DNA from: Candidatus Levyibacteriota bacterium
GTDB taxonomy: Bacteria; Patescibacteriota; Microgenomatia; Levybacterales; UBA12049
DNA: 64,000 bases
Direction of reading: 5' to 3'
NCBI GenBank assembly: GCA_027459725.1
Contig: DAIDHK010000001.1
Location: 131,411 to 195,410, forward strand
Numbering within the stretch: the first letter of the stretch is position 1; each line of letters begins with the position of its first letter. Positions 12,172-22,688 of this stretch are shown here, in pieces. The translations under genes were made by a program, and so were the position numbers. Under the pieces are notes generated by a model. It was not told the origin of the DNA, searched no databases, and was given only the letters and a program-made list of their open reading frames with translations.

Positions 12172-13038
12172 CTAATCATTTTTTTGTGCATATTGTGAAC
12201 TTATCCACCCAATTTTGTCATCTGGTAACTTAACCTCATACCATCCATTTTTTTCATCCAAAAGATATAAGCTATCACCCGGCTTTACCTGTTCAACTTC
12301 TGCGCTGTCTATATTGGCATCAGCTCGTACGCGCAAAAAACCTGTTGGGGTATCTAATATAGTAACCTTTGCCACCACAGGTGAAGGAGAAAGCTGTGCA
12401 GATGATGATGCATTCTCACTCGCACTACCGGATGCAGGTATTGGCTGATTAGACGCAGCTAAATAAATTGTCGCTTGCAGAATATATCCATTCGGGGTAT
12501 TTATATGTAGTATTTTATCAACGTAACCGTTTTTTTGTACTACTAATTTATGATCCGAAGCTGTCGGATTGTTATATGATAGAGGGGTATTACCTATAGA
12601 ATTATCATCAAGCAGCACATTAGCAGAGCTGGGGAAAGATGTAACCAAAAGCGAGCTACTATTAGAATTGTTTGCAGGATTTAACTCCAGAACGCTTCCG
12701 CTGGATTGTCCCGGGGGGCCAAAAGTGTAATCAACTACTGTCAAAACTCCCTTTCCTATTGAAATATGCTCAGCAAATGGAGCACTGCTCCCCTGCTTAG
12801 GGACAAGAGAAATGATGTAATTACCAACAGGCAGTACATTGCCGCTTTTGGAACTCTCACAACGACAAATTGGAGTATCACCTATATATTTGTTATTCAG
12901 ATATACCTTAGAAACCGGTTGACTCGTTATCTGTAGCTCTCCAGTACTATAGCCCTGCCCGAAGAAAAACTGCATGGTAAAGAAAATTGCCGCTGTTATG
13001 AGTAATGATAGAAGTAAAACTAGAACCGCTTTTTTCAT
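12172..13038 (-). CDS. Membrane-anchored PEGA + SH3b domain protein
   Basis: N-terminal TM, two ITSxPxxAxVxL..IGxTP PEGA repeats, C-terminal LRVRA...GWYEVKLPDDKIGWIS. Confidence 0.85.
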   Translation of the reverse strand: MKKAVLVLLLSLLITAAIFFTMQFFFGQGYSTGELQITSQPVSKVYLNNKYIGDTPICRCESSKSGNVLPVGNYIISLVPKQGSSAPFAEHISIGKGVLTVVDYTFGPPGQSSGSVLELNPANNSNSSSLLVTSFPSSANVLLDDNSIGNTPLSYNNPTASDHKLVVQKNGYVDKILHINTPNGYILQATIYLAASNQPIPASGSASENASSSAQLSPSPVVAKVTILDTPTGFLRVRADANIDSAEVEQVKPGDSLYLLDEKNGWYEVKLPDDKIGWISSQYAQKND

Positions 13039-13127
13039 AAATATGATTTATATATTTAAACTAAATTAGAAGCTCTATCAACTATATCATGGAAGAAAAC
13101 TTAGGATCAAGGAATTCAAATATATTA

Positions 13128-15014
13128 TCATTCCCAGAGTGCGAAACGTTTACTAATCTTCTCTACTTCTTCATTATCACCAAAAAATCCAACCGCATAC
13201 AATTCAATGTCTTTTTCGTCCTGTTCTTCTATCATTTTGCCTAACTTTGTATCATCGGTTGTTTCAATCATATCTTTATTAAATGCCAGATGTAACATTC
13301 TTTTGTTTTCTACTTCCTGCAAAACATCATGTAACTCTGATTCGCTGGCAACTAATATGATTATGGCATATTGAGAATTACGCGGGAGATCTTTACCGTC
13401 TTTAGTAATAAAATATTCACCAGTTCCAAAATTTACTCCCATTTTATTTCCCAAATATGCGCCTACGTGAGCAGTTGCATTCATCGCCTTCCAGGAAGGT
13501 AAATCTTTACGCACAATTACTGCTGCTTTATGGGAGAAATCCTGTTTTCCAGAGTGCTGTCCTTCGTTTTTTACTTTTTGTCCTTCATCTTGTTTCATGG
13601 TTGGAAAGAATACCATTTCACGAACCGGTTTATCTACGAGCATACTAAATAATCTTTCTGAAATACCAAAACCGGCAGCTGGAGGCATACCATACTCTAA
13701 CGCTTCCACATAGTCCTCGTCCATCATCTGTGCTTCTTCATCTCCTGCCTCACGCAGTCTCATCTGCTCTTCAAATCTTTGCTTCTGGTCAATGGGATCA
13801 TTTAGTTCAGAAAATCCTTTACCCAGCTCTGAACCCATTGCTAAAATCTGTGTTCGCTCAACTAAATTTTCTCTGCCCGGAATACGTTTGGCAAGTGGTT
13901 CTACTTCTACCGGATGATTCATAACAAACATAGGCTGAATAAGTTGGGGACGGATAGTTTTTTTATATAAATAATCAAGCAATCTACCTTTACCCAAGTT
14001 AGGTTCAACCTGAATATGCAGTTTATCAGCTAAACGATACAAATCTTCAATGGTCATTTTCTCTGTATCTACCTGCCAATGCTCATTTAACAAATCTAGG
14101 TATTCTTTACGCGGCCACTTTCCGGACCAGTTAATCGTTTGTCCCTGCCAACTTGTTTGCAAACCAGCAAAAGTTGTTTTAATAACAGTTTGGTACATAT
14201 CCTGCAAAAAATCCATCAACTGATTATAGTCCGCATATGCCCAATAAAATTCCAACTGTGTATAATCCTGTAGATGTTCATCATCAATGCCTTCATTACG
14301 AAAGATTCTGCCAATTTCAAATACTTTTTCAAACCCACCTACCAATAAACGCTTAAGTGGTAATTCTAGCGAAATTCGAAGATATAAATCCATATCCTGT
14401 GCATTATGATGAGTTATGAATGGTCGGGCATCCGCACCTCCCGGAATTGATTGTAGAACAGGTGTCTCAACTTCTAAAAAACCATTATCAATAAGATACT
14501 GACGCATACTTTGCCAGAAAATTGTTTTCTTTTTAAATAACTCACGTAATTCCGGGTGCATTAATAAATCAAGATAGCGTTTACGCAACAGTACTTCTTT
14601 ATTTTTTATATCGTAAAATTCACTTGGTAAGGGTAATAGTGCTTTGGTCAGTAAGGTAAAACTAGTAGGAGCGATTGAGATTTCCCCTGCCATTGTTTTT
14701 ACCACTTCACCCTCAACTCCAATATAATCTCCAATATCTAATAAGTTTAGATTTTTATATAAATCTCCCAACAGTTTTTTTTGAAAAAAAATTTGAATTT
14801 TACCTGTCTCGTCCTTTAAATCGGCAAAGGCGATATTGCCATGTGTACGAAAAGAATATAGTTTACCAGCTGTCTTAACAGATCTACCTTCCATCTGCAA
14901 ACACTGAAAAACTGTCTGCTGCCTATCATATTTATGTATATAAGGATCCCATCCAATTTCCCTGATCCTGGCTAGTTTATCAATTCTTGCCTGTTTAAAG
15001 TTTACTTCATCCAT
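13128..15014 (-). CDS. lysS: Lysine--tRNA ligase (class II) with C-terminal DUF2000-like extension
   Basis: GGADARPF, YLRISLELPLKRL, FRNEG, YGMPPAAGFG, FFPTMK, then ~140 extra aa; own promoter TTGTTA-17-TACAAT 6 nt before ATG. Confidence 0.95.
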   Translation of the reverse strand: MDEVNFKQARIDKLARIREIGWDPYIHKYDRQQTVFQCLQMEGRSVKTAGKLYSFRTHGNIAFADLKDETGKIQIFFQKKLLGDLYKNLNLLDIGDYIGVEGEVVKTMAGEISIAPTSFTLLTKALLPLPSEFYDIKNKEVLLRKRYLDLLMHPELRELFKKKTIFWQSMRQYLIDNGFLEVETPVLQSIPGGADARPFITHHNAQDMDLYLRISLELPLKRLLVGGFEKVFEIGRIFRNEGIDDEHLQDYTQLEFYWAYADYNQLMDFLQDMYQTVIKTTFAGLQTSWQGQTINWSGKWPRKEYLDLLNEHWQVDTEKMTIEDLYRLADKLHIQVEPNLGKGRLLDYLYKKTIRPQLIQPMFVMNHPVEVEPLAKRIPGRENLVERTQILAMGSELGKGFSELNDPIDQKQRFEEQMRLREAGDEEAQMMDEDYVEALEYGMPPAAGFGISERLFSMLVDKPVREMVFFPTMKQDEGQKVKNEGQHSGKQDFSHKAAVIVRKDLPSWKAMNATAHVGAYLGNKMGVNFGTGEYFITKDGKDLPRNSQYAIIILVASESELHDVLQEVENKRMLHLAFNKDMIETTDDTKLGKMIEEQDEKDIELYAVGFFGDNEEVEKISKRFALWE

Positions 15015-15058
15015 AGCTGTATTGTAGCTTATTTTCTATTAACTAACAATTTTCAAAT

Positions 15059-15676
15059 CTAAAATTCTATTTTTTCTGAGCAGACAAATTGCAGACCTGT
15101 TTCAGAGTGATAGTATAACTGGTAATAATCAGCAAAATCCTTAAAATTACAAATAGAATAAATCTTATTGCCATCTGCTAGCCCTACATTTAAGGCAAAG
15201 ATTTCTCTACTATTATCTTTTAATATTTTTTTTAAATTTTCTAATGCTTTTTGGGGGGAGTTATTAACCAGTTCGTTTTTTAATAAATTCCAAATCTTCT
15301 CGGCTCCAATTTTTCCTCTTATATTAAGCGACACACCACGAAGAAGCCCATTAAAAACAAAAGCGTAACTGCCTTGTATATATGGCTGGTTAAAATCAAT
15401 ATTATTTTTGTGTTTTGCAAAAGACGCGCTTCTTGCATGAACTACGAACATATTACTGTTTGGTATTATCTCAAATAGATCTCTGTCCTGCCAAATTGGA
15501 TTTAGTGATTTAAACACCCGCCATTTTTTATCCTTATCAATCCATGCCACTCCCCATCCATCAGCTTGTCTGTCACCGTCCGGAGCCATGCTTTTTTCAG
15601 CTAAATCGGCAAACCTGTTTAAAATTACTGTTGACTCATTATTATTTTTTGATTGAATGAGTAGAAATCTACACAT
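15059..15676 (-). CDS. Class II glutamine amidotransferase-like Ntn hydrolase (YafJ/EgtC/DUG3 type)
   Basis: MCRF N-terminal nucleophile Cys, DGWGVAW, HARSAS, FNG, CSE; starts 3 nt after the lysJ stop. Confidence 0.85.
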   Translation of the reverse strand: MCRFLLIQSKNNNESTVILNRFADLAEKSMAPDGDRQADGWGVAWIDKDKKWRVFKSLNPIWQDRDLFEIIPNSNMFVVHARSASFAKHKNNIDFNQPYIQGSYAFVFNGLLRGVSLNIRGKIGAEKIWNLLKNELVNNSPQKALENLKKILKDNSREIFALNVGLADGNKIYSICNFKDFADYYQLYYHSETGLQFVCSEKIEF

Positions 15677-15679
15677 ATC

Positions 15680-16843
15680 TTAATCTAAATTTTCAATTAT
15701 TTTATTTAAACTTCTTATCATTAAATCAATATGTCTTTTTTGAATAATATACGAGGGTAGAAATCTTATTACGTCATCTCCTGCAGGAATGACCAGAATT
15801 TTTTCATCCTGCAACTGTTTCATGATTTTATTCCTAATGTCTTTTTTTACTACCAGTCCGATCATTAAGCCCTTACCCCTTACCGCTAATATTCTGTTGT
15901 TTTTTATTAAAGATAGCTCCTTCAAGAGATACAGTCCGTTATTTTTAACTTTAGTTAATGTTTTCTTATCAAGTAAATCGAGTGTGGCCATAATTCCGGC
16001 ACAAGCCAGTGGATTTCCCCCAAATGTCGAACTATGAATATGCTTAGGTACCAAATTTGCCACCACATCTGTAACAATCGTAGCACCGATTGGAATGCCC
16101 CCAGCTAATCCTTTGCCCAAGCATAAAATATCACCTGCAATTCCACCACTGGCAATAAATTTTCCAGTTCTGCCCATACCTGTTTGAATTTCATCGATGA
16201 TTAACATAATTTTTTTCGATTTGCAAATCTTTGAAATATTAATTAAAAAATTATCATCAGGGACATGGATACCTCCCTCTCCCTGAATCGGTTCTATAAT
16301 AAAACCTGCTGTATTTTCATCAATTACATTATTTAAGCTTTCAATATCATTGAATGGTATACTGACAAAATCCCACAATAATGGCATGAAGGGTTGTTTA
16401 TACCTTTCACCCGAAGTTGCAGAAAGTGCCCCCAATGTTTTTCCATGATAACCATGGTCACAAACGATAAATTTTTTCTTACCTGTTGACAGCACTGCAA
16501 ATTTTAATGCAGTTTCAATTGCCTCTGCTCCTGAGTTACTGAAATAAACTTGTGTATAATCATTGCCGCACTTATTTACCAGACGAGCTGCCGCACGCGC
16601 TCTCGTTTCATTAGTAAAACTTGCATGTAACGTAGTCAGTTTATTTATCTGATCAATCAGTGCTCTATTAATCCTCAGATTATTGTAACCTAAAATATTC
16701 ACTCCGTAATTTGTCATGAAATCTAAATATTGATTATCGTTCTCATCATAAAGATATACCCCTTTACCAAGCCTTAAGGATAGCTTTCTGTCAATATATG
16801 TATTGACTAAATAATTTTTCTGTAAAAACCCACTGATGTTCAT
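15680..16843 (-). CDS. lysJ: [LysW]-aminoadipate semialdehyde transaminase (class III PLP; LysJ/ArgD)
   Basis: FSNSGAEAIE, YHGKTLGALS, EPIQGEGG, DEIQTGMGRTG, GKGLAGG, STFGGNPLAC; context. Confidence 0.85.
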   Translation of the reverse strand: MNISGFLQKNYLVNTYIDRKLSLRLGKGVYLYDENDNQYLDFMTNYGVNILGYNNLRINRALIDQINKLTTLHASFTNETRARAAARLVNKCGNDYTQVYFSNSGAEAIETALKFAVLSTGKKKFIVCDHGYHGKTLGALSATSGERYKQPFMPLLWDFVSIPFNDIESLNNVIDENTAGFIIEPIQGEGGIHVPDDNFLINISKICKSKKIMLIIDEIQTGMGRTGKFIASGGIAGDILCLGKGLAGGIPIGATIVTDVVANLVPKHIHSSTFGGNPLACAGIMATLDLLDKKTLTKVKNNGLYLLKELSLIKNNRILAVRGKGLMIGLVVKKDIRNKIMKQLQDEKILVIPAGDDVIRFLPSYIIQKRHIDLMIRSLNKIIENLD

Positions 16844-17647
16844 TTAACTAATTACTGTACCTCCACCTTCTAATATTTTAACTATTGGATGAACAATCCT
16901 CCCATCTCCCCAATACATTTTTTTTAGGCCATATGTAAATGCTTTTTCTGCTCCCAGCAATTTCTTTTTCATTCTTCCTTTAGCAAATTGCATATAATTA
17001 TTAAGTTCAGCTCTGTCAATTTTTTTAATTAAACTACACGGATCATCTGCATCACGAAGTAAACCGGGCGCAGCAAAAAGTGATATCATTTTTTTAATTT
17101 TTAAATCCCTAATCATTACTGCTGCTGCAAAGTCATTATCTGTATTAACAATTTCGTTTTCATTACTTATGGCCGGCGGACAAACTACAGGTATATACTT
17201 ATTACCCAACAATAGTAATAATAAACGAGTATTTACCTTTTCTACTTTCCCAGTTAGATTATCAGTTATGAGTTTTGTCTTGCCATTCTCAACTGAGTAT
17301 ACGAAATTCTTTCTACTGGCTTCCCATAATCTACCATCCACTCCAGTTAATCCAACTGCATTTACCCCATATTTTTGCAAGGTTACGACAAGTCTTTTGT
17401 TGATCAGTCCAGCATAAGTCATCAGAAAAATATCAATAGCTTCATCGTTTGTGTAAATGCTACTTACCCCAGAAGGTGAGTGCAAAACTTTACTTGGAGC
17501 TTTTAACTTTTTAGCGATTTCATCTCTTGTCTCACTTGCTCCATGGATGATGATTATTCGTTCTTTATTTTTCAACAAATCAGATATATCCCTGCAGATA
17601 GCATCAATATTAAGATTTTTGCCCCCACCTATTTTAATTAAAACCAT
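16844..17647 (-). CDS. lysZ: [LysW]-aminoadipate kinase (LysZ/ArgB family)
   Basis: IKIGGG, IHGAS, SPSGVSS..T, GLTGVDG, NTDND, GRMKKK. Confidence 0.88.
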   Translation of the reverse strand: MVLIKIGGGKNLNIDAICRDISDLLKNKERIIIIHGASETRDEIAKKLKAPSKVLHSPSGVSSIYTNDEAIDIFLMTYAGLINKRLVVTLQKYGVNAVGLTGVDGRLWEASRKNFVYSVENGKTKLITDNLTGKVEKVNTRLLLLLLGNKYIPVVCPPAISNENEIVNTDNDFAAAVMIRDLKIKKMISLFAAPGLLRDADDPCSLIKKIDRAELNNYMQFAKGRMKKKLLGAEKAFTYGLKKMYWGDGRIVHPIVKILEGGGTVIS

Positions 17648-17652
17648 AATCT

Positions 17653-18900
17653 TTAAGAAACCTGTTTCATTGCCTTTTCTTTATACTCTTCACCTATATG
17701 ATAACGATTAGCAACTTCCCAAAGTATAGACTCACAGGTATTATCTTTACCCATACGGCAAGACTCATCTTTATAGATATTGGTAATTACCTTTGCAAGA
17801 GTATCACTTACTCTATAGCCATGTCCTAATAAATAGCTTTGCACATGATGCCATCCGCTATAAGGATTAAGCACAAACTGATTCTCAGGAACTCCAAACA
17901 CCGATAGATCCACTGAACGATAAGCATTAGGATTTTTCATTACTGCATCTGTATGTACACCTGCACAATGTGTAGCATTGTCTTGGGAAACTAATTCTGA
18001 TTCTGGAACAGGAACTTTCAAAATATTACTCATAAGTTGATTTAAGTTGAAGATAAGTTTTAGATTAAAGCTTCTAAGCAAATTGGGATTAAATTCATAA
18101 AGTCTAAGTAATAAATTTCCAAAGGATGTTATTCCTGTCCGTTCTGCCCAACCCCATATTGATGTGTCAATCAGTGACATCCCTGCTTTTGCAGCTATTA
18201 GTGAATTATGCAACGATTCGCCTCTATCATTATGAAAATGTCCCTCCAAGTACTTATTCGGATAACGAGTTTGCATCTCTTTTATAACCTTTTTTATAGT
18301 TTCTTCCGTAGCAACTCCCACTGTGTCAGGAATTCCAAATGTATTTACATAAGGTTCAGCTGCATCAAATGCCAGTTGTCTATCAAGTGGATCTGACCTG
18401 AAGGCATCTTCAGTACTATAACGGATATATAATCCAGGATATGAGGAGCGAACTTCCCGTAAGGTTCTTCCCACTCTATCTGCAACTTCGGCAGGACTTT
18501 TCTGATGTCCGGCATATTGGGCTACCCCCATATAAACATGTATTCCGTCAACACCTCCCTCAATAGCTGAATTTATATCGTCTTCGTGACAACGAACGTG
18601 GGCATTTATTCTTGGCCTTTGTCCTTCAGGATAGCTATCCGCGAGCAGACGAACAGCCGCCAAACTCTCCCGTTCAAGACCGTTCACATTAGGTGAGAAA
18701 ACCTCAAAATTGCGTACACCTATATCATACATTGCACTAACCAGTCTTAACCTCTCATCAATATTAAGGGTTGGCCTTCCAAAATATCTTCTACTCTGTA
18801 AACCATCTCTGAGGGTTGTATCAATATTAGTTATATATTCCCCATTTACTTTGCCCGATGTTGGAAAGATTTCTGGTGATCCTGTTTCTTTTATTCTCAT
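17653..18900 (-). CDS. Homocitrate synthase (DRE-TIM family, fungal/Thermus-like)
   Basis: IDTTLRDGLQ, HVRCH, RYSTEDAFRS, IPDTVG, HFHNDRG, ERTGIT, HCAGVH. Confidence 0.85.
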   Translation of the reverse strand: MRIKETGSPEIFPTSGKVNGEYITNIDTTLRDGLQSRRYFGRPTLNIDERLRLVSAMYDIGVRNFEVFSPNVNGLERESLAAVRLLADSYPEGQRPRINAHVRCHEDDINSAIEGGVDGIHVYMGVAQYAGHQKSPAEVADRVGRTLREVRSSYPGLYIRYSTEDAFRSDPLDRQLAFDAAEPYVNTFGIPDTVGVATEETIKKVIKEMQTRYPNKYLEGHFHNDRGESLHNSLIAAKAGMSLIDTSIWGWAERTGITSFGNLLLRLYEFNPNLLRSFNLKLIFNLNQLMSNILKVPVPESELVSQDNATHCAGVHTDAVMKNPNAYRSVDLSVFGVPENQFVLNPYSGWHHVQSYLLGHGYRVSDTLAKVITNIYKDESCRMGKDNTCESILWEVANRYHIGEEYKEKAMKQVS

Positions 18901-18904
18901 AATT

Positions 18905-19933
18905 TTAAATTGGGTGCAAGCCAGTAAATGTTAAACTTGTCGTTTCCGGCCATCCACACATTAAATTCAATGCCTGTACCGCCTGCCCAGCCGTGCCTTT
19001 AACTAAATTATCTATTGCCCCTATTACTACTAGTCGATTAGTATGTTTATCTAATTCAAAACCAATATCACAATAATTAGTTCCCTGTAGAATCTTTGGT
19101 TCAGGGTAGCGATAAAGACCGCTTTTCTCTTTGACAATCCGGATAAATGGTTCATCTCTATATACACTTTTGTATACTTTCCAAATTTCTTTCTCAGTTA
19201 TCCACTCTTTCGGTCTGGTATGAATAGTCACTAATAAACCTCTTACCATATCTATGGCTGTTGCAGAAATAGAGACATTAAGTCCAGCTAATTCCTGTTC
19301 TATCTCAGCAGTATGACGATGACCTGTTGGCATATATGAGCGCACCACACCTGAGCGTTCAGGATGATGAGAAGATAATGAAAAACTCATACCTGCTTGT
19401 GAACTGCTCATTTTTGCATCGATAATAACTTCACTTTCAATCACATTATTTTTAACCAATGGGAACAGGGAAAGTATGGAAACCGTAGCTTCACAACCAG
19501 CACATGCCACATAATCGGAATTTTTTATTTCTTCCCGATGTAATTCAGAGATACCGTAGACAAATTGTTTAAGTAAATCTGCTGAAAGATGTTTTTGGTG
19601 ATACCATTCGGTAAATTTTCCTTCATCATGTAAGCGAAAATCCGCTCCCAAATCAATGATTTTTTTTGCCTTTCTTTTAAATTTATTCATTAAACTCATT
19701 GATATTCCATTAGGCAATGCCACAATTAGTACATCACATTTTTCTAATTTTGCTGGCGATACAAATGACATATCGGTTGCTTTGCGTAAATTAGGATGAA
19801 CTAAACTTACCGGTTGATTAGCAAACTGACGTGATGTCACTTGTTGCAAAGAAACTTTAGGATGTTGAAGTAAAATCCTCAAAAGCTCACCGCCCGCATA
19901 CCCGGATCCGCCAACAATAGATACCTTAATCAT
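18905..19933 (-). CDS. lysY: [LysW]-aminoadipate-6-phosphate reductase (LysY/ArgC family)
   Basis: GGSGYAGGELLR, DLGADFRL, AGCEAT, HHPERSG, HRHTAEI, IDNLVKGTAGQAVQ. Confidence 0.9.
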   Translation of the reverse strand: MIKVSIVGGSGYAGGELLRILLQHPKVSLQQVTSRQFANQPVSLVHPNLRKATDMSFVSPAKLEKCDVLIVALPNGISMSLMNKFKRKAKKIIDLGADFRLHDEGKFTEWYHQKHLSADLLKQFVYGISELHREEIKNSDYVACAGCEATVSILSLFPLVKNNVIESEVIIDAKMSSSQAGMSFSLSSHHPERSGVVRSYMPTGHRHTAEIEQELAGLNVSISATAIDMVRGLLVTIHTRPKEWITEKEIWKVYKSVYRDEPFIRIVKEKSGLYRYPEPKILQGTNYCDIGFELDKHTNRLVVIGAIDNLVKGTAGQAVQALNLMCGWPETTSLTFTGLHPI

Positions 19934-20778
19934 AAATTTTTATATACCTCCAAACAATAATCGATGACCTCTCCAGAAATATTCACTCCCGTTGGCTCTT
20001 CAGAATTCTTAAATTCCATAGTATGATTTATTTCATTGACCAAATATCCTTCGTCTGTTTCAAAAATATCCAGAGCCAGAATACCACCACCAACTGCATT
20101 TGAAGCATTACCGGCTAAAGTACGTAATGCTTTATTTAATTTACAATTTAAAGCTTCCCCTCCCCTGGCTGTATTAGTAATCCAATGCTCTGACTTACGA
20201 TAAATTGCACAAACCGCCTTCCCGTTTATTACGAACACTCTGATATCTCTACCTGGTTTTCTAATATACTGCTGGATATAGAGCGACTTCTGCTGTGGAG
20301 AACCGAGTACATCTTTATGTTCAATCAGCGCTTCTAAACTATCAGTATCATTCACTTTGGCTAATAGCCTACCCCATGAACCCAAGTTTGGTTTGATAAC
20401 TACTGGGTAACCTCCCATTTGCTCAATTGCTAATCGCGCTTCTTCAACCCCAAATACTAATGCAAATTTTGGTGTTGAAATTTTATTCTTCTGTAAAACT
20501 AGAGATGTCAAAAACTTATCCTCACAAATACTCGCTACTTTTGATGAGTTTATGACTTTAACACCCTGTGACTCTAAAAACTTAGTAGCATAGCCGCCTT
20601 TAACAGTAGACACACAACGTTCTAATGCTAAATCAAATTCTGTAGTATAAGTTAACGGATTAAAGACTACATTACGGACGTCAATTAATCTTATATTTAA
20701 CTTACGCTTTTTTGCAGCATCTAAAAGTAGTTTTTCATCAGCACGGATTAGAGTATGTAAAATACCGAGAGTAAGCAT
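19930..20778 (-). CDS. lysX: Alpha-aminoadipate--LysW ligase LysX (RimK-type ATP-grasp)
   Basis: KPNLGSWGRLL, KPGRDIR, HWITNTARGG, NEINHTMEFKNS (LysX-type rather than ArgX-type FKGF). Confidence 0.92.
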   Translation of the reverse strand: MLTLGILHTLIRADEKLLLDAAKKRKLNIRLIDVRNVVFNPLTYTTEFDLALERCVSTVKGGYATKFLESQGVKVINSSKVASICEDKFLTSLVLQKNKISTPKFALVFGVEEARLAIEQMGGYPVVIKPNLGSWGRLLAKVNDTDSLEALIEHKDVLGSPQQKSLYIQQYIRKPGRDIRVFVINGKAVCAIYRKSEHWITNTARGGEALNCKLNKALRTLAGNASNAVGGGILALDIFETDEGYLVNEINHTMEFKNSEEPTGVNISGEVIDYCLEVYKNL

Positions 20779-20802
20779 ATATTTATGTGTATTTGTGGTG
20801 TC

Positions 20803-20985
20803 TTACTCTCCCCAATCCTCCTCAACTTCAGGAGCCTCTTTTAAGACAGCTTTATTGTCGTTCAAATTGTCTATTACCAGACGTGATTTACAATCTGCAC
20901 ATGAAATAACTTCGGCAACCTGAGTTGAAGGAACCAACTTAGTTGTAGCATCACATACAGGACATACTGCAAGAATATTTTTCAT
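20803..20985 (-). CDS. lysW: Amino-group carrier protein LysW
   Basis: CPVC...CADC zinc ribbon and diagnostic C-terminal EEDWGE. Confidence 0.95.
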   Translation of the reverse strand: MKNILAVCPVCDATTKLVPSTQVAEVISCADCKSRLVIDNLNDNKAVLKEAPEVEEDWGE

Positions 20986-20994
20986 AATAATTCC

Positions 20995-21022
20995 ATTATA
21001 TTATTTGATTTTCTATAGTCAA
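20995..21022 (-). promoter_or_regulatory. Promoter of the lysW operon
   Basis: TTGACT-16-TATAAT, 9 nt before the lysW ATG. Confidence 0.65.
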
Positions 21023-21056
21023 TTTATTCACAATATTTGACAATTATTTTAATTAA

Positions 21057-21072
21057 TGTTACATATGTAACA
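21057..21072. promoter_or_regulatory. Perfect 16-bp palindrome, candidate operator
   Basis: TGTTACATATGTAACA directly before ATG 21073 and 14 nt downstream of TTGACA (21037-21042). Confidence 0.6.
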
Positions 21073-21723
21073 ATGATTACTACTACTGAAATAGTAAAGG
21101 ATATTATTCAAACTTCACCTCTGTTGGAAGATGGTCTGGCAAAAGGCATTATTAGTTACTCAGCTCTAGCAAGAGATATTAAACCAATTATTGAAAGAAG
21201 ATTATTAAAAAAAGTTACAAGAGGCGCTATCGTCATGGCTATTAAAAGATCAAGTATAAATTTAAAAAGAAGCAAAAAGCTTATAGAGAATATAGTAAGC
21301 TTAAGTAGCCTTACTGTAAGATCCAATCTTATCGAGTTGACATATCAAAACTCAGATACAATAGTTGAAAAACACAAAAAACTTTTTCTTTTGGCAGAGA
21401 AAAAAAATAATGCATTATATACCCTTTCTCAAGGTATTAGAGAAAGTATGATAGTGGTGGATGCCAATTTGGAGCATGATGTAGAAAATATATTGCTGGA
21501 TGAAAAACTTATTAAAAAAATTAGAAACTTATCCTCAATCACAATACTATTGTCCAAAGATACAGTTAATATTCCTGGAGTCTACTATTCTATCCTGAAA
21601 CTATTAGCATGGAACAGCATTAGTGTTGTTGATGTTGTATCAACTCTATCAGAGCTAACTATTGTTCTGGAAGACGCCTATGTGGATAAGGCGTTCTCCC
21701 TACTTAAAAACTACAATCTTTAG
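21073..21723 (+). CDS. HTH + ACT-domain protein, probable amino-acid responsive regulator (often mislabelled aspartate kinase)
   Basis: GIISYSALARDIKP helical N-terminus; C-terminal ACT-like PGVYYSILKLLAWNSISVVDVVSTLSELTIVL; no kinase domain; divergent from lysW. Confidence 0.75.
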   Translation: MITTTEIVKDIIQTSPLLEDGLAKGIISYSALARDIKPIIERRLLKKVTRGAIVMAIKRSSINLKRSKKLIENIVSLSSLTVRSNLIELTYQNSDTIVEKHKKLFLLAEKKNNALYTLSQGIRESMIVVDANLEHDVENILLDEKLIKKIRNLSSITILLSKDTVNIPGVYYSILKLLAWNSISVVDVVSTLSELTIVLEDAYVDKAFSLLKNYNL

Positions 21724-21734
21724 AAAAAATAGCT

Positions 21735-22688
21735 TTAAATTAGCGGGTCAATAACAACATAATTATTTTCAGGATCATGTAATCCATTTTTCTTGATCAT
21801 AACATTACCCCAATTTATATCATAATGTTGAAAGGACGGAGACCAATACCTATCTTTAATAGGATCAATAATTTTTTTAGCGGCTATTGCGATCTTAGGA
21901 ATTGAATCAAAAGCAAAATCCCAAACTCCATCGATAATTCTATCATCCTTTTCCAACACACCAGATCTCTGCAACTTCTCATAGTCATCAATTATTTGTG
22001 CAATAGTATAACCTTCTATATTCTCCTGAATTAGTATTTCACTAGATCCTAAATATACCTCGGGGACAGGTATGCCATTTTCTCCTAAATGACGCAAGGC
22101 AATATAATTTCCTAAGCCAGTTACTCCACTAAGATTCCATTCTTTTCCTGTTGTATCATCTTCATATTTTTTCCTGCCTACAGATGCTTTCCATCTTTGT
22201 TCTGAATAAGGAAATGCAAAGTTAAAGTACTTTATACAAAGATCAGGATAAGCTCGTTCTACAGTCTTAGGAGAGAAGCCTACTGCACCGTATCCACCAC
22301 CTCTAAAATTAGAAAAGCTGATAGAACCAGAACATACACTGTTTAAGAATAGCTTTAGTATTTCTCCAGCCTTTCTTCTATTTGTTAAATTTACCACCAA
22401 TCTATCCAGTACTACTTTATATCCCTCTTTCCTCGAGACATCCCGAACTGCATAACCATGTACTGCATTGGTTATCATGCAATCCACATGACCACCTTTA
22501 GAAAAATACATTAAATCTAAAGACTCCGGTGCAGTTGAAGATAACCTAGACAAATCGACTGAGTCTACTCTATCCACTGGAGTGTCTGCCATAAAAACAT
22601 TATATGGCCTAGCTTTTGGGCTCTTATGATGAAACTCACTTCTGGCCCGGGCGAACTCTGCTGGAATTTCTCTACCTTCTATCTCCAT
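21735..22688 (-). CDS. Protein-kinase-like fold hypothetical protein
   Basis: GGGYGAV loop, CIKY Lys, GIPVPEVY, QENIEG hinge, HYDINWGNVM catalytic loop, VVIDP. Confidence 0.7.
   Translation of the reverse strand: MEIEGREIPAEFARARSEFHHKSPKARPYNVFMADTPVDRVDSVDLSRLSSTAPESLDLMYFSKGGHVDCMITNAVHGYAVRDVSRKEGYKVVLDRLVVNLTNRRKAGEILKLFLNSVCSGSISFSNFRGGGYGAVGFSPKTVERAYPDLCIKYFNFAFPYSEQRWKASVGRKKYEDDTTGKEWNLSGVTGLGNYIALRHLGENGIPVPEVYLGSSEILIQENIEGYTIAQIIDDYEKLQRSGVLEKDDRIIDGVWDFAFDSIPKIAIAAKKIIDPIKDRYWSPSFQHYDINWGNVMIKKNGLHDPENNYVVIDPLI

Follow-up and report, generated by a model that had tools for sequence, protein, structure and literature searches.

An EgtC-like Ntn hydrolase at the lysK position of a LysW-type operon in a CPR bacterium

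One of the closest described systems is the LysW (AmCP) pathway of Thermus thermophilus. As given in the accessible part of PMC12998189, it shares with the locus analysed here the clustering of LysW ending in EDWGE, LysX with the five-residue signature F-I-T-NS (aminoadipate-specific in Table 1 of that paper), LysZ, LysY, a LysJ-like enzyme and homocitrate synthase (HCS). It differs, on the same source, in that T. thermophilus has the M20 metallopeptidase LysK where a cysteine hydrolase of the Ntn type is found here, in that the present genome lacks homoaconitase and homoisocitrate dehydrogenase, and in that a divergent DUF7523/ACT-like regulator and a downstream lysS accompany the operon described here. 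The lysW-X-Y-Z-J-K clusters of Chloroflexi (L049-L084) have the same gene order up to lysJ, and their LysX proteins are the next-best relatives (47-50% identity); unlike the present operon they end in LysK (above the cut-off in L050), often beside argG/argH, and their LysW ends in Glu in 33/33 cases. A hydrolase with the fold in question is EgtC of mycobacterial ergothioneine synthesis, which, according to the accessible part of PMC9103826, strips a gamma-glutamyl residue, i.e., hydrolyses a gamma-glutamyl amide. Searches of the literature outside subscription journals and supplements gave no report of a link between LysW and an Ntn hydrolase or of a LysW operon in CPR bacteria, and the accessible part of GapMind mentions neither.

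Organization of the operon

The genes are arranged in the order lysW-lysX-lysY-hcs-lysZ-lysJ-ntn-lysS on the minus strand of the window, i.e., the whole 64,000-nucleotide stretch that was analysed (Table 1); the source genome (G000) is 98.67% complete. The first six are intact open reading frames within 15680..20985, in agreement with an earlier note on this DNA, and they bear out its reading that this CPR genome encodes a LysW route; the genome is of the Microgenomates type. The EDWGE terminus of an intact zinc-ribbon LysW was confirmed, and both WITNTARGG and FKNS were recovered when LysX was aligned to its Thermus counterpart. The cluster is not, however, directly upstream of lysS, as had been stated, because the Ntn-hydrolase gene, which begins 3 nt after lysJ, intervenes. 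This hydrolase, overlooked in that note and occupying the place of LysK, is the most unusual feature of the locus; LysK itself, which the earlier note did not list among the missing enzymes, is also absent.

Table 1 Features of the operon and its upstream region
Feature	Coordinates	Strand	Basis or remarks
lysS, class II lysyl-tRNA synthetase with C-terminal DUF2000	13128..15014	-	44 nt after Ntn hydrolase
Ntn hydrolase, EgtC-like, class II glutamine amidotransferase fold	15059..15676	-	205 aa, PF13230, Met-Cys-Arg start; candidate LysK replacement
lysJ, class III aminotransferase	15680..16843	-	scores below the cut-offs for ArgD and LysJ; named from its position
lysZ, LysW-aminoadipate kinase	16844..17647	-	NF010659 above cut-off
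hcs, homocitrate-synthase-like	17653..18900	-	catalytic motifs kept; no downstream pathway partners in genome
lysY, LysW-aminoadipyl-phosphate reductase	18905..19933	-	argC TIGR01850 passed; PDB matches
lysX, ATP-grasp ligase, aminoadipate-type F-I-T-NS signature	19930..20778	-	TIGR02144 above cut-off; alignment to Thermus LysX
lysW, amino-group carrier protein	20803..20985	-	60 aa, two CxxC motifs, C-terminal EEDWGE
Operon promoter, Sigma70-type, TTGACT-16-TATAAT	20995..21022	-	9 nt before lysW start
Perfect 16-bp palindrome, candidate operator	21057..21072	.	immediately ahead of regulator ATG, overlapping the probable extended -10 box of that gene
Divergent regulator-like gene, DUF7523/ACT-like family	21073..21723	+	atlas neighbours, head-to-head position

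LysX scores 321.7 against TIGR02144 (cut-off 275.6) and LysZ 299.3 against the [LysW]-aminoadipate kinase model NF010659 (cut-off 223), and the best PDB matches of LysY are Thermus-type LysY structures. LysJ, HCS and LysW match their families with scores below the curated cut-offs, LysW (Pfam and NCBIfam LysW families) only just. The Thermus-type set is thereby represented by LysW, LysX, LysZ, LysY and, by position, LysJ, and it is incomplete in LysK and in aminoadipate synthesis, for which only HCS of three enzymes is present.

Origin of aminoadipate and identity of the product

Homoaconitase and homoisocitrate dehydrogenase, noted previously as absent from the window, are missing genome-wide: a search for leuC/D-like and leuB/hicdh-like genes detected no aconitase and no isocitrate/isopropylmalate dehydrogenase (PF00330, PF00694, PF00180), and these profiles, like PF01546, were each positive in 14/14 control genomes. 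AcnX (PF04412), PrpD (PF03972) and IlvD (PF00920), as stand-ins for the absent steps, were found neither in the source genome nor in any of five HCS-only genomes (5/5). An aminoadipate aminotransferase, listed in the earlier note as absent from the window, may be present: a Phe/Tyr-pheS operon on a different contig encodes one class I aminotransferase, a possible candidate. Both middle-step enzymes occur in some relatives; in 7/17 lysine-type genomes with LysX (completeness 87-99%), Aconitase_C and Iso_dh both go undetected, which points to salvage of aminoadipate or 2-oxoadipate. Since homoaconitase and homoisocitrate dehydrogenase were not found in the genome, aminoadipate, or 2-oxoadipate acted on by a general aminotransferase, would come from outside, supplied by the host or neighbours. 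The earlier note had allowed for completion elsewhere or by host-supplied aminoadipate; the steps were not found elsewhere in the source genome, outside supply is the best reading, and we judge it likely that the precursor is salvaged instead of being made by a hidden de novo route.

The orphan HCS is still under purifying selection, with dN 0.21 and dS about 3 relative to a congener that shares the truncated pathway state. Its best matches are the homocitrate synthases 3ivs/2ztj (E about 1e-46), and its TIGR02146 score of 193 lies below the cut-off of 414, which the HCS from a complete operon also fails to reach (199). An HCS that is intact, conserved and kept alone in many relatives would suit a complete de novo route, in which the absent steps are carried out by unrecognised non-homologous enzymes, encoded outside the assembly, or bypassed by a host that exchanges homocitrate for 2-oxoadipate; acetyl-CoA could be provided by ATP-citrate lyase, the single non-homologous exchange within this operon is a precedent for others, and LeuCD/LeuB-like genes in 4/18 genomes of the class might substitute. 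We nevertheless regard this route as unlikely, as the profiles listed above, which define the scope of the search, are without a match in the congener too, and HCS itself is absent from other genomes, e.g., G072/G135 (97% complete) and G038 (94%). Counted against salvage were the conserved and retained HCS, which makes no sense if salvage is pure, and the lack of an evident reason to import aminoadipate in place of lysine. A role of HCS as an irreversible sink for 2-oxoglutarate made by LysJ was rejected as not general, glutamate dehydrogenase being present in 3/5 HCS-only genomes tested, with none in G000 and G003.

LysX carries F-I-T-NS in its strict form, in contrast to F-M-T-GL in the two arginine-type operons. 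No argG, argF or lysA was detected in the source genome, where PyrB is the sole carbamoyltransferase; the ArgX-type signature, argF and argG of an ArgW/ArgX arginine pathway are thus all lacking. The gene next after ntn is lysS in 19/75 scored metagenome loci (class I in 10, class II in 9; 16 at contig ends). Because LysX has F-I-T-NS and lysS lies downstream, the product is very likely lysine, as judged from these sequence features; the same observations, with lysS of either class often downstream, leave the previously proposed ornithine route or novel product unsupported. MurE has the motif EDPR instead of DNPR, which we take to indicate a non-DAP enzyme, and the class does contain arginine-type versions, both in keeping with a system that, without aminoadipate, acts mainly on glutamate to give ornithine for peptidoglycan or polyamines. 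Thermus LysX also has measurable Glu activity, below 10% of that with aminoadipate (AAA), and LysZ and LysY take LysW-Glu (accessible part of PMC12998189). The strict signature, the lack of argF and argG and the linkage of the operon to lysS and HCS nonetheless make ornithine quite an improbable main product.

The Ntn hydrolase at the position of LysK

A whole-genome search with PF01546 found no M20 peptidase in the source genome, and the LysK model TIGR01902 exceeded its cut-off in 0/48 genomes with the same LysX type and in 2/2 Chloroflexi controls; weaker M20-family proteins occur in 24 of the 48 (best 115 bits, cut-off 163). The ntn gene directly follows lysJ in 37/38 LysX-selected loci that have lysJ (including L016 and L035), and lysJ is directly upstream in 76/80 Ntn-selected metagenome loci, none of which contains LysK. 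Among 401 genomes of the class, LysX is present in 18 and the hydrolase in 20, which include all 18; of the two additional genomes, one has its operon at the end of a contig and the other a solitary ntn gene that lacks the Cys start. These counts, like those of the loci, are not independent, since the genomes are related MAGs and 9/18 recur among the LysX-selected loci. Tree distances of the hydrolase and of X-Y-Z-J are correlated (Spearman 0.69, 0/999 permutations, 56 rows), and two arginine operons (argH/argF or argH/argG) likewise end in lysJ-ntn. The weaker M20 proteins of the 24 genomes could act at this step there, which was counted against the hydrolase.

The AlphaFold model of the hydrolase (pLDDT 96) has EgtC (4zfj/4zfk/4zfl) as its top Foldseek matches, with TM 0.71-0.78. 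C2, R3, R82, N109 and G110 are invariant in 33 aligned rows, and 97/115 full-length representatives start with MCR, so that the catalytic Cys after Met, the conserved Arg and Asn-Gly and the alpha-beta-beta-alpha fold of class II GATases/Ntn hydrolases are all present. The N-terminal Cys and the DGWG and F-NG motifs are shared with EgtC; however, identity is ~18%, the TIGR03442 score is 57 against 218.65 bits, and the context is lysJ/lysS, not egt genes. As the score is far below the EgtC cut-off, homology does not fix the substrate, and the glutamyl group proposed here would, unlike that of EgtC, be the C-terminus of a carrier protein. A predicted complex with LysW scored 0.45 (best control 0.00), a weak value in the range up to 0.60 that was reached by 18/157 solved pairs and 2/215 mismatches, with contacts agreeing to at least 89% and partner pLDDT of at least 72.

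On sequence grounds the hydrolase is most likely a non-homologous replacement of LysK, and fold, synteny and co-occurrence make it very probably the release enzyme. The class II GATase fold, an EgtC structure titled 'with glutamine' and Gln-ended LysW in 18/80 Ntn-type loci would also fit a glutaminase or amidotransferase supplying Glu to LysJ, or a LysW deamidase only, with release by another, unlinked hydrolase. This is very unlikely, as the gene sits exactly in the lysK position and never alongside LysK in the loci examined, the source genome is without any M20 enzyme, and the hydrolase is conserved to the same degree in loci whose LysW has a terminal Glu.

We favour, with some confidence, a LysK-less carrier system that converts scavenged aminoadipate to lysine, released by the EgtC-like hydrolase. 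By homology to the Thermus enzymes, LysX would load aminoadipate onto the terminal Glu of the carrier, LysZ would phosphorylate it, LysY would reduce the phosphorylated intermediate, and LysJ would aminate the product, all on LysW. After removal of Met1, Cys2 of the hydrolase would attack the gamma-glutamyl amide, yielding free lysine for LysS, and probably also MurE, and regenerating LysW. To our knowledge, unloading of an amino-group carrier is known only from M20 peptidases; the assignment would thus add a non-homologous route and give an unannotated enzyme family a testable function. Pathway-completeness tools would score such genomes as lacking the last step.

Decay of a formerly complete pathway is highly improbable. 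The middle-step genes are patchy across the tree, and all that is left in G296 is a remnant of the hydrolase that lacks Met-Cys and sits between greA and lysS, but comparison with the equally truncated congener shows purifying selection on all operon genes (dN 0.14-0.25, synonymous sites near saturation), stops and frameshifts are absent, and promoter and palindrome are retained. Repurposed carrier systems make a non-proteinogenic amino acid in Streptomyces, and divergent HCS-like genes as well as unrelated enzymes in the lysY-lysZ slot of L009 and L017 (threonine-synthase-like, ThDP, transaldolase-like) could hint at the same, but an operon without tailoring or NRPS genes, with a LysX signature identical to that of Thermus and linked to lysS, renders this extremely improbable.

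Spread and control region of the operon

The earlier note suggested horizontal acquisition; the operon is not a one-off in the class, 18/401 genomes having LysX, and the lysine-type operons form one clade. Arginine-type LysW-Ntn operons are present too. LysW ends in Gln in the 18/80 Ntn-type loci and in 0/33 LysK-type loci, which suggests an unrecognised maturation step of Gln-ended carriers. Four pattern matches to a Gln-ended LysW among 251 Chloroflexota genomes were discarded (one without a stop codon, three not LysW once translated); the Glu-end pattern, as pattern matches only, occurs in 85/251. A tentative wider reading is a carrier branch of Microgenomates and a few other phyla in which a cysteine Ntn hydrolase recycles the carrier, for lysine and ornithine, and also deamidates Gln-ended carriers to Glu, many symbionts keeping only the second half, from host aminoadipate to lysine. 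Selection maintains in a CPR lineage a half pathway that consumes ATP and NADPH, which suggests cross-feeding of one particular metabolite and offers a handle on Microgenomates hosts; salvage of host aminoadipate, if true, would identify these hosts as producers of aminoadipate or 2-oxoadipate.

The divergent gene, which faces away from lysW in a head-to-head arrangement that most related loci share, may have a regulatory role. It has no Pfam/NCBIfam match; its atlas neighbours are DUF7523 and ACT_7 (score 0.97), families found in only 11-29% of cluster members. Its likely start is ATG 21073, leaderless, where the ORF caller had chosen TTG 21037. The palindrome has one match in the window, which is weak alone as 11/100 shuffles also yield one; TGTTA-N6-TAACA is perfect in 28/47 related loci and matches at least 9/10 in 37/47, the promoter consensus partly accounting for one arm. 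A palindrome-matrix search of the source genome gave no convincing second site and no transporter. The operon promoter, with 11/12 matches, is the best of 41 sites in 12900-21800, a total at chance level, and in relatives TTGAC recurs at its position.

An Ntn hydrolase as the proposed replacement of LysK

The six-gene LysW cluster of the earlier note is borne out: lysW, lysX, lysY, the homocitrate synthase-like gene (HCS), lysZ and lysJ follow in this order on the minus strand, close-packed and all intact. LysX, LysZ and LysY pass the curated profile cut-offs; LysJ, HCS and LysW match their own families, but under these cut-offs. Thermus-type enzymes are the top PDB matches for both LysX and LysY. 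The assignment of the source genome G000 (52 contigs, 1.495 Mb, completeness 98.67%) to the CPR is supported, as Microgenomates-type, since the nearest LysX relative (78% identity) belongs to a Levyibacteriota congener, G003. The cluster had also been placed directly upstream of lysS, which does lie downstream; however, a gene for an EgtC-like Ntn hydrolase intervenes, beginning 3 bases after lysJ.

Comparison strongly supports the proposal that this hydrolase replaces LysK, the M20-family enzyme that takes lysine off LysW in the Thermus-type pathway. From 80 loci selected by LysX, the 44 best-ranked (L005-L048), L081 and the archaeal L078 were examined; among the 38 reaching lysJ, the hydrolase comes next in 35 by ORF calling and in 2 further by tblastn, the sole exception being archaeal. 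The archaeal locus holds a regulator, two lysW, several lysX, HCS/T/U/HICDH, Y, Z and J, with neither LysK nor hydrolase in view. Chloroflexi clusters differ in having a ~350-aa gene in this slot, which is LysK in the single locus scanned. When loci were instead selected by the hydrolase (best 80 of 146 confirmed metagenome loci), lysJ ended at most 400 nt upstream in 76, three others lay at a contig edge, one had no lysJ match within 430 nt, and LysK was found in 0/80. The LysK model exceeded its cut-off in 0/48 whole genomes with this LysX type versus 2/2 Chloroflexi, weaker M20 proteins being present in 24 of the 48. A class sample of 401 genomes contained LysX in 18 (nine coinciding with LysX-selected loci) and the hydrolase in 20, including all 18; of the two extras, one is an operon at a contig end and the other a solitary hydrolase gene that lacks Met-Cys and is flanked by greA and lysS, which resembles a deleted operon. 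Tree distances of the hydrolase and X-Y-Z-J correlate (Spearman 0.69, 56 rows, 0/999 permutations), as common ancestry alone would also produce.

Two arginine-type operons, argH-carA-carB-argF-W-X-Y-Z-J-ntn (G004) and argH-argG-ORF-W-X-Y-Z-J-ntn (G476), carry F-M-T-GL as the five-residue LysX signature, form a separate branch and end in the same hydrolase, so the hydrolase goes with the LysW carrier irrespective of product. The literature outside subscription journals and supplements yielded no CPR LysW operon and no Ntn replacement of LysK.

Lysine is attached to LysW via the gamma-carboxyl of the terminal Glu. The bond proposed for the hydrolase would therefore be of the type cleaved by EgtC, an Ntn hydrolase that takes off a gamma-glutamyl residue (PMC9103826). 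EgtC is also the best match of the structure model (pLDDT 96; E 1.7e-9, TM 0.71-0.78), sharing its fold at ~18% identity. Across 33 homologues C2, R3, R82, N109 and G110 do not vary, and the family comprises 137 representatives with E < 1e-30. Complex prediction with LysW lends weak support to an interaction, scoring 0.45 versus 0.00 for the best control (contacts agreeing to 89% or more, partner pLDDT 72 or higher), where scores of 0.60 or less are reached by 18/157 solved pairs and 2/215 mismatches.

LysW ends in Glu in the window and in Gln in 18/80 Ntn-type loci versus 0/33 Chloroflexi-type loci; the Ntn-type count includes a few near-duplicates, and three Chloroflexota chance matches and L048, with no hydrolase in view, were dropped from it. 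No true Gln-ended LysW was found in 251 Chloroflexota genomes, where the Glu pattern matched 85. Some archaea probably have LysW ending in Gln. Carriers ending in Gln could be deamidated by an enzyme with a glutaminase fold.

Coordinates of features in the window and in other loci
Feature	Location	Strand	Remarks
lysS	window 13128-15014	-	class II LysRS, C-terminal DUF2000
Ntn hydrolase	window 15059-15676	-	205 aa, N-terminus Met-Cys-Arg, PF13230
Regulator	window 21073-21723	+	
ORF	window 21735-22688	-	317 aa; no Pfam/NCBIfam match; congener copy 74% identical
pheS operon, G000	L110:9585-13194		prephenate dehydrogenase/dehydratase, aminotransferase, pheS
Regulator paralogue, G000	L112:8256-11001		C1, ~18-21 kb
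ATP-citrate lyase, G000	L113:6850-9857		two subunits
Extended ArgG	L114:7255-8886; L115:8143-9762		~545 aa
Lone hydrolase remnant, G296	L213:7203-7877		
Inserts in related operons	L009:3555-4973; L017:11978-16176; L010:12972-13844; L011:11807-12622		

Product and regulation

Two features point to lysine as the product. The window LysX, like most relatives, has exactly the residues F-I-T-NS (H/N/V-I-T-NV in one sub-clade), a signature described as aminoadipate-specific with activity on Glu below 10% (PMC12998189). A lysyl-tRNA synthetase gene comes after the hydrolase both in the window and in 19/75 metagenome loci scored (class I in 10, class II in 9; 16 stop at a contig edge), and the occupation of one spot by two unrelated synthetase classes argues for lysine. 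Of the lysine or ornithine route envisaged before, the ornithine alternative fares poorly: argG is absent from G000 (single match, E 3e-4, under cut-off) and PyrB is the sole carbamoyltransferase.

Many of these genomes have an extended ArgG apart from the LysW operon, in one case adjoining carAB/pyrB/pyrC. In L006, L009, L044, L047 and L081 the class I synthetase downstream of the hydrolase is fused to a B3/4 (editing-like) domain; this domain and DUF2000 possibly serve proofreading against pathway intermediates. MurE enzymes that add DAP have the motif DNPR; MurE of G000 (L202, C2) has EDPR, consistent with Lys- or Orn-type peptidoglycan.

Divergent from lysW lies a putative regulator gene, DUF7523/ACT-like as a lead only. 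The intergenic region has conserved back-to-back sigma70 boxes and a palindrome, TGTTA-N6-TAACA, conserved at 9/10 or better in 37/47 loci; we infer amino-acid-sensing control. A paralogue is divergent from a 352-aa ORF and a histone-deacetylase-family gene, perhaps an acetyl-lysine salvage neighbourhood.

The missing middle steps

The lack of homoaconitase and homoisocitrate dehydrogenase, noted earlier for the window, holds throughout G000: neither aconitase subunit, large or small, nor isocitrate/isopropylmalate dehydrogenase was matched (controls positive 14/14 each), so that no leuC/D-like or leuB/hicdh-like genes were found for the suggested completion of the route elsewhere in the genome. 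LysK is absent in addition, because G000 has no M20 peptidase match (controls 14/14). lysA was not found in G000, nor AcnX, PrpD or IlvD in 5/5 searched genomes with HCS alone of the early steps. The reported absence of an aminoadipate aminotransferase stands for the window only: one of four PF00155 matches in G000 is a class I aminotransferase in the pheS operon that might aminate 2-oxoadipate. That operon is a second instance of late biosynthetic steps adjoining the cognate synthetase.

Among the 18 LysX-positive class genomes, HCS, homoaconitase and dehydrogenase all lie inside the operon in five, Leu-type equivalents only, outside the operon, occur in four, an aconitase-like protein without dehydrogenase in one and neither family in seven (completeness 87-99%); one is arginine-type. 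In the operon tree (FastTree, midpoint root) complete operons are dispersed over the lysine-type clade (78 rows, support 0.995), which suggests repeated loss.

Uptake of aminoadipate or 2-oxoadipate from outside is the simplest reading, in line with the earlier idea of a host supply and with the seven genomes having neither family, but the retained orphan HCS does not fit pure salvage. Its acetyl-CoA could come from ATP-citrate lyase. A role of HCS as a 2-oxoglutarate sink is only partly consistent; PF00676 (pyruvate dehydrogenase E1) and glutamate dehydrogenase have no strong match in G000. A decaying operon is ruled against by dN of 0.14-0.25 with synonymous sites almost saturated in all genes versus the congener, values from which the half pathway appears to be maintained. 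The G003 operon is in the same truncated state, and HCS (dN 0.21) retains its metal and catalytic motifs.

Distribution and variants

The same operon occurs in L035, L038 and L045, from Aminicenantes-labelled genomes (3.4-4.9 Mb) and a 2.7-Mb bacterium; L035 and L045 branch from inside the CPR clade, which suggests that the operon was transferred from one phylum to another. Operons of L010-L014, L016, L018, L020, L022 and others, labelled 'uncultured Gammaproteobacteria' (0.7-1.8 Mb genomes), cluster with Microgenomates, and these labels are probably placeholders. Inserts within related operons encode threonine-synthase-like, ThDP acetolactate-synthase-like and threonine-transaldolase-like enzymes and, on the opposite strand, PP2C phosphatases.
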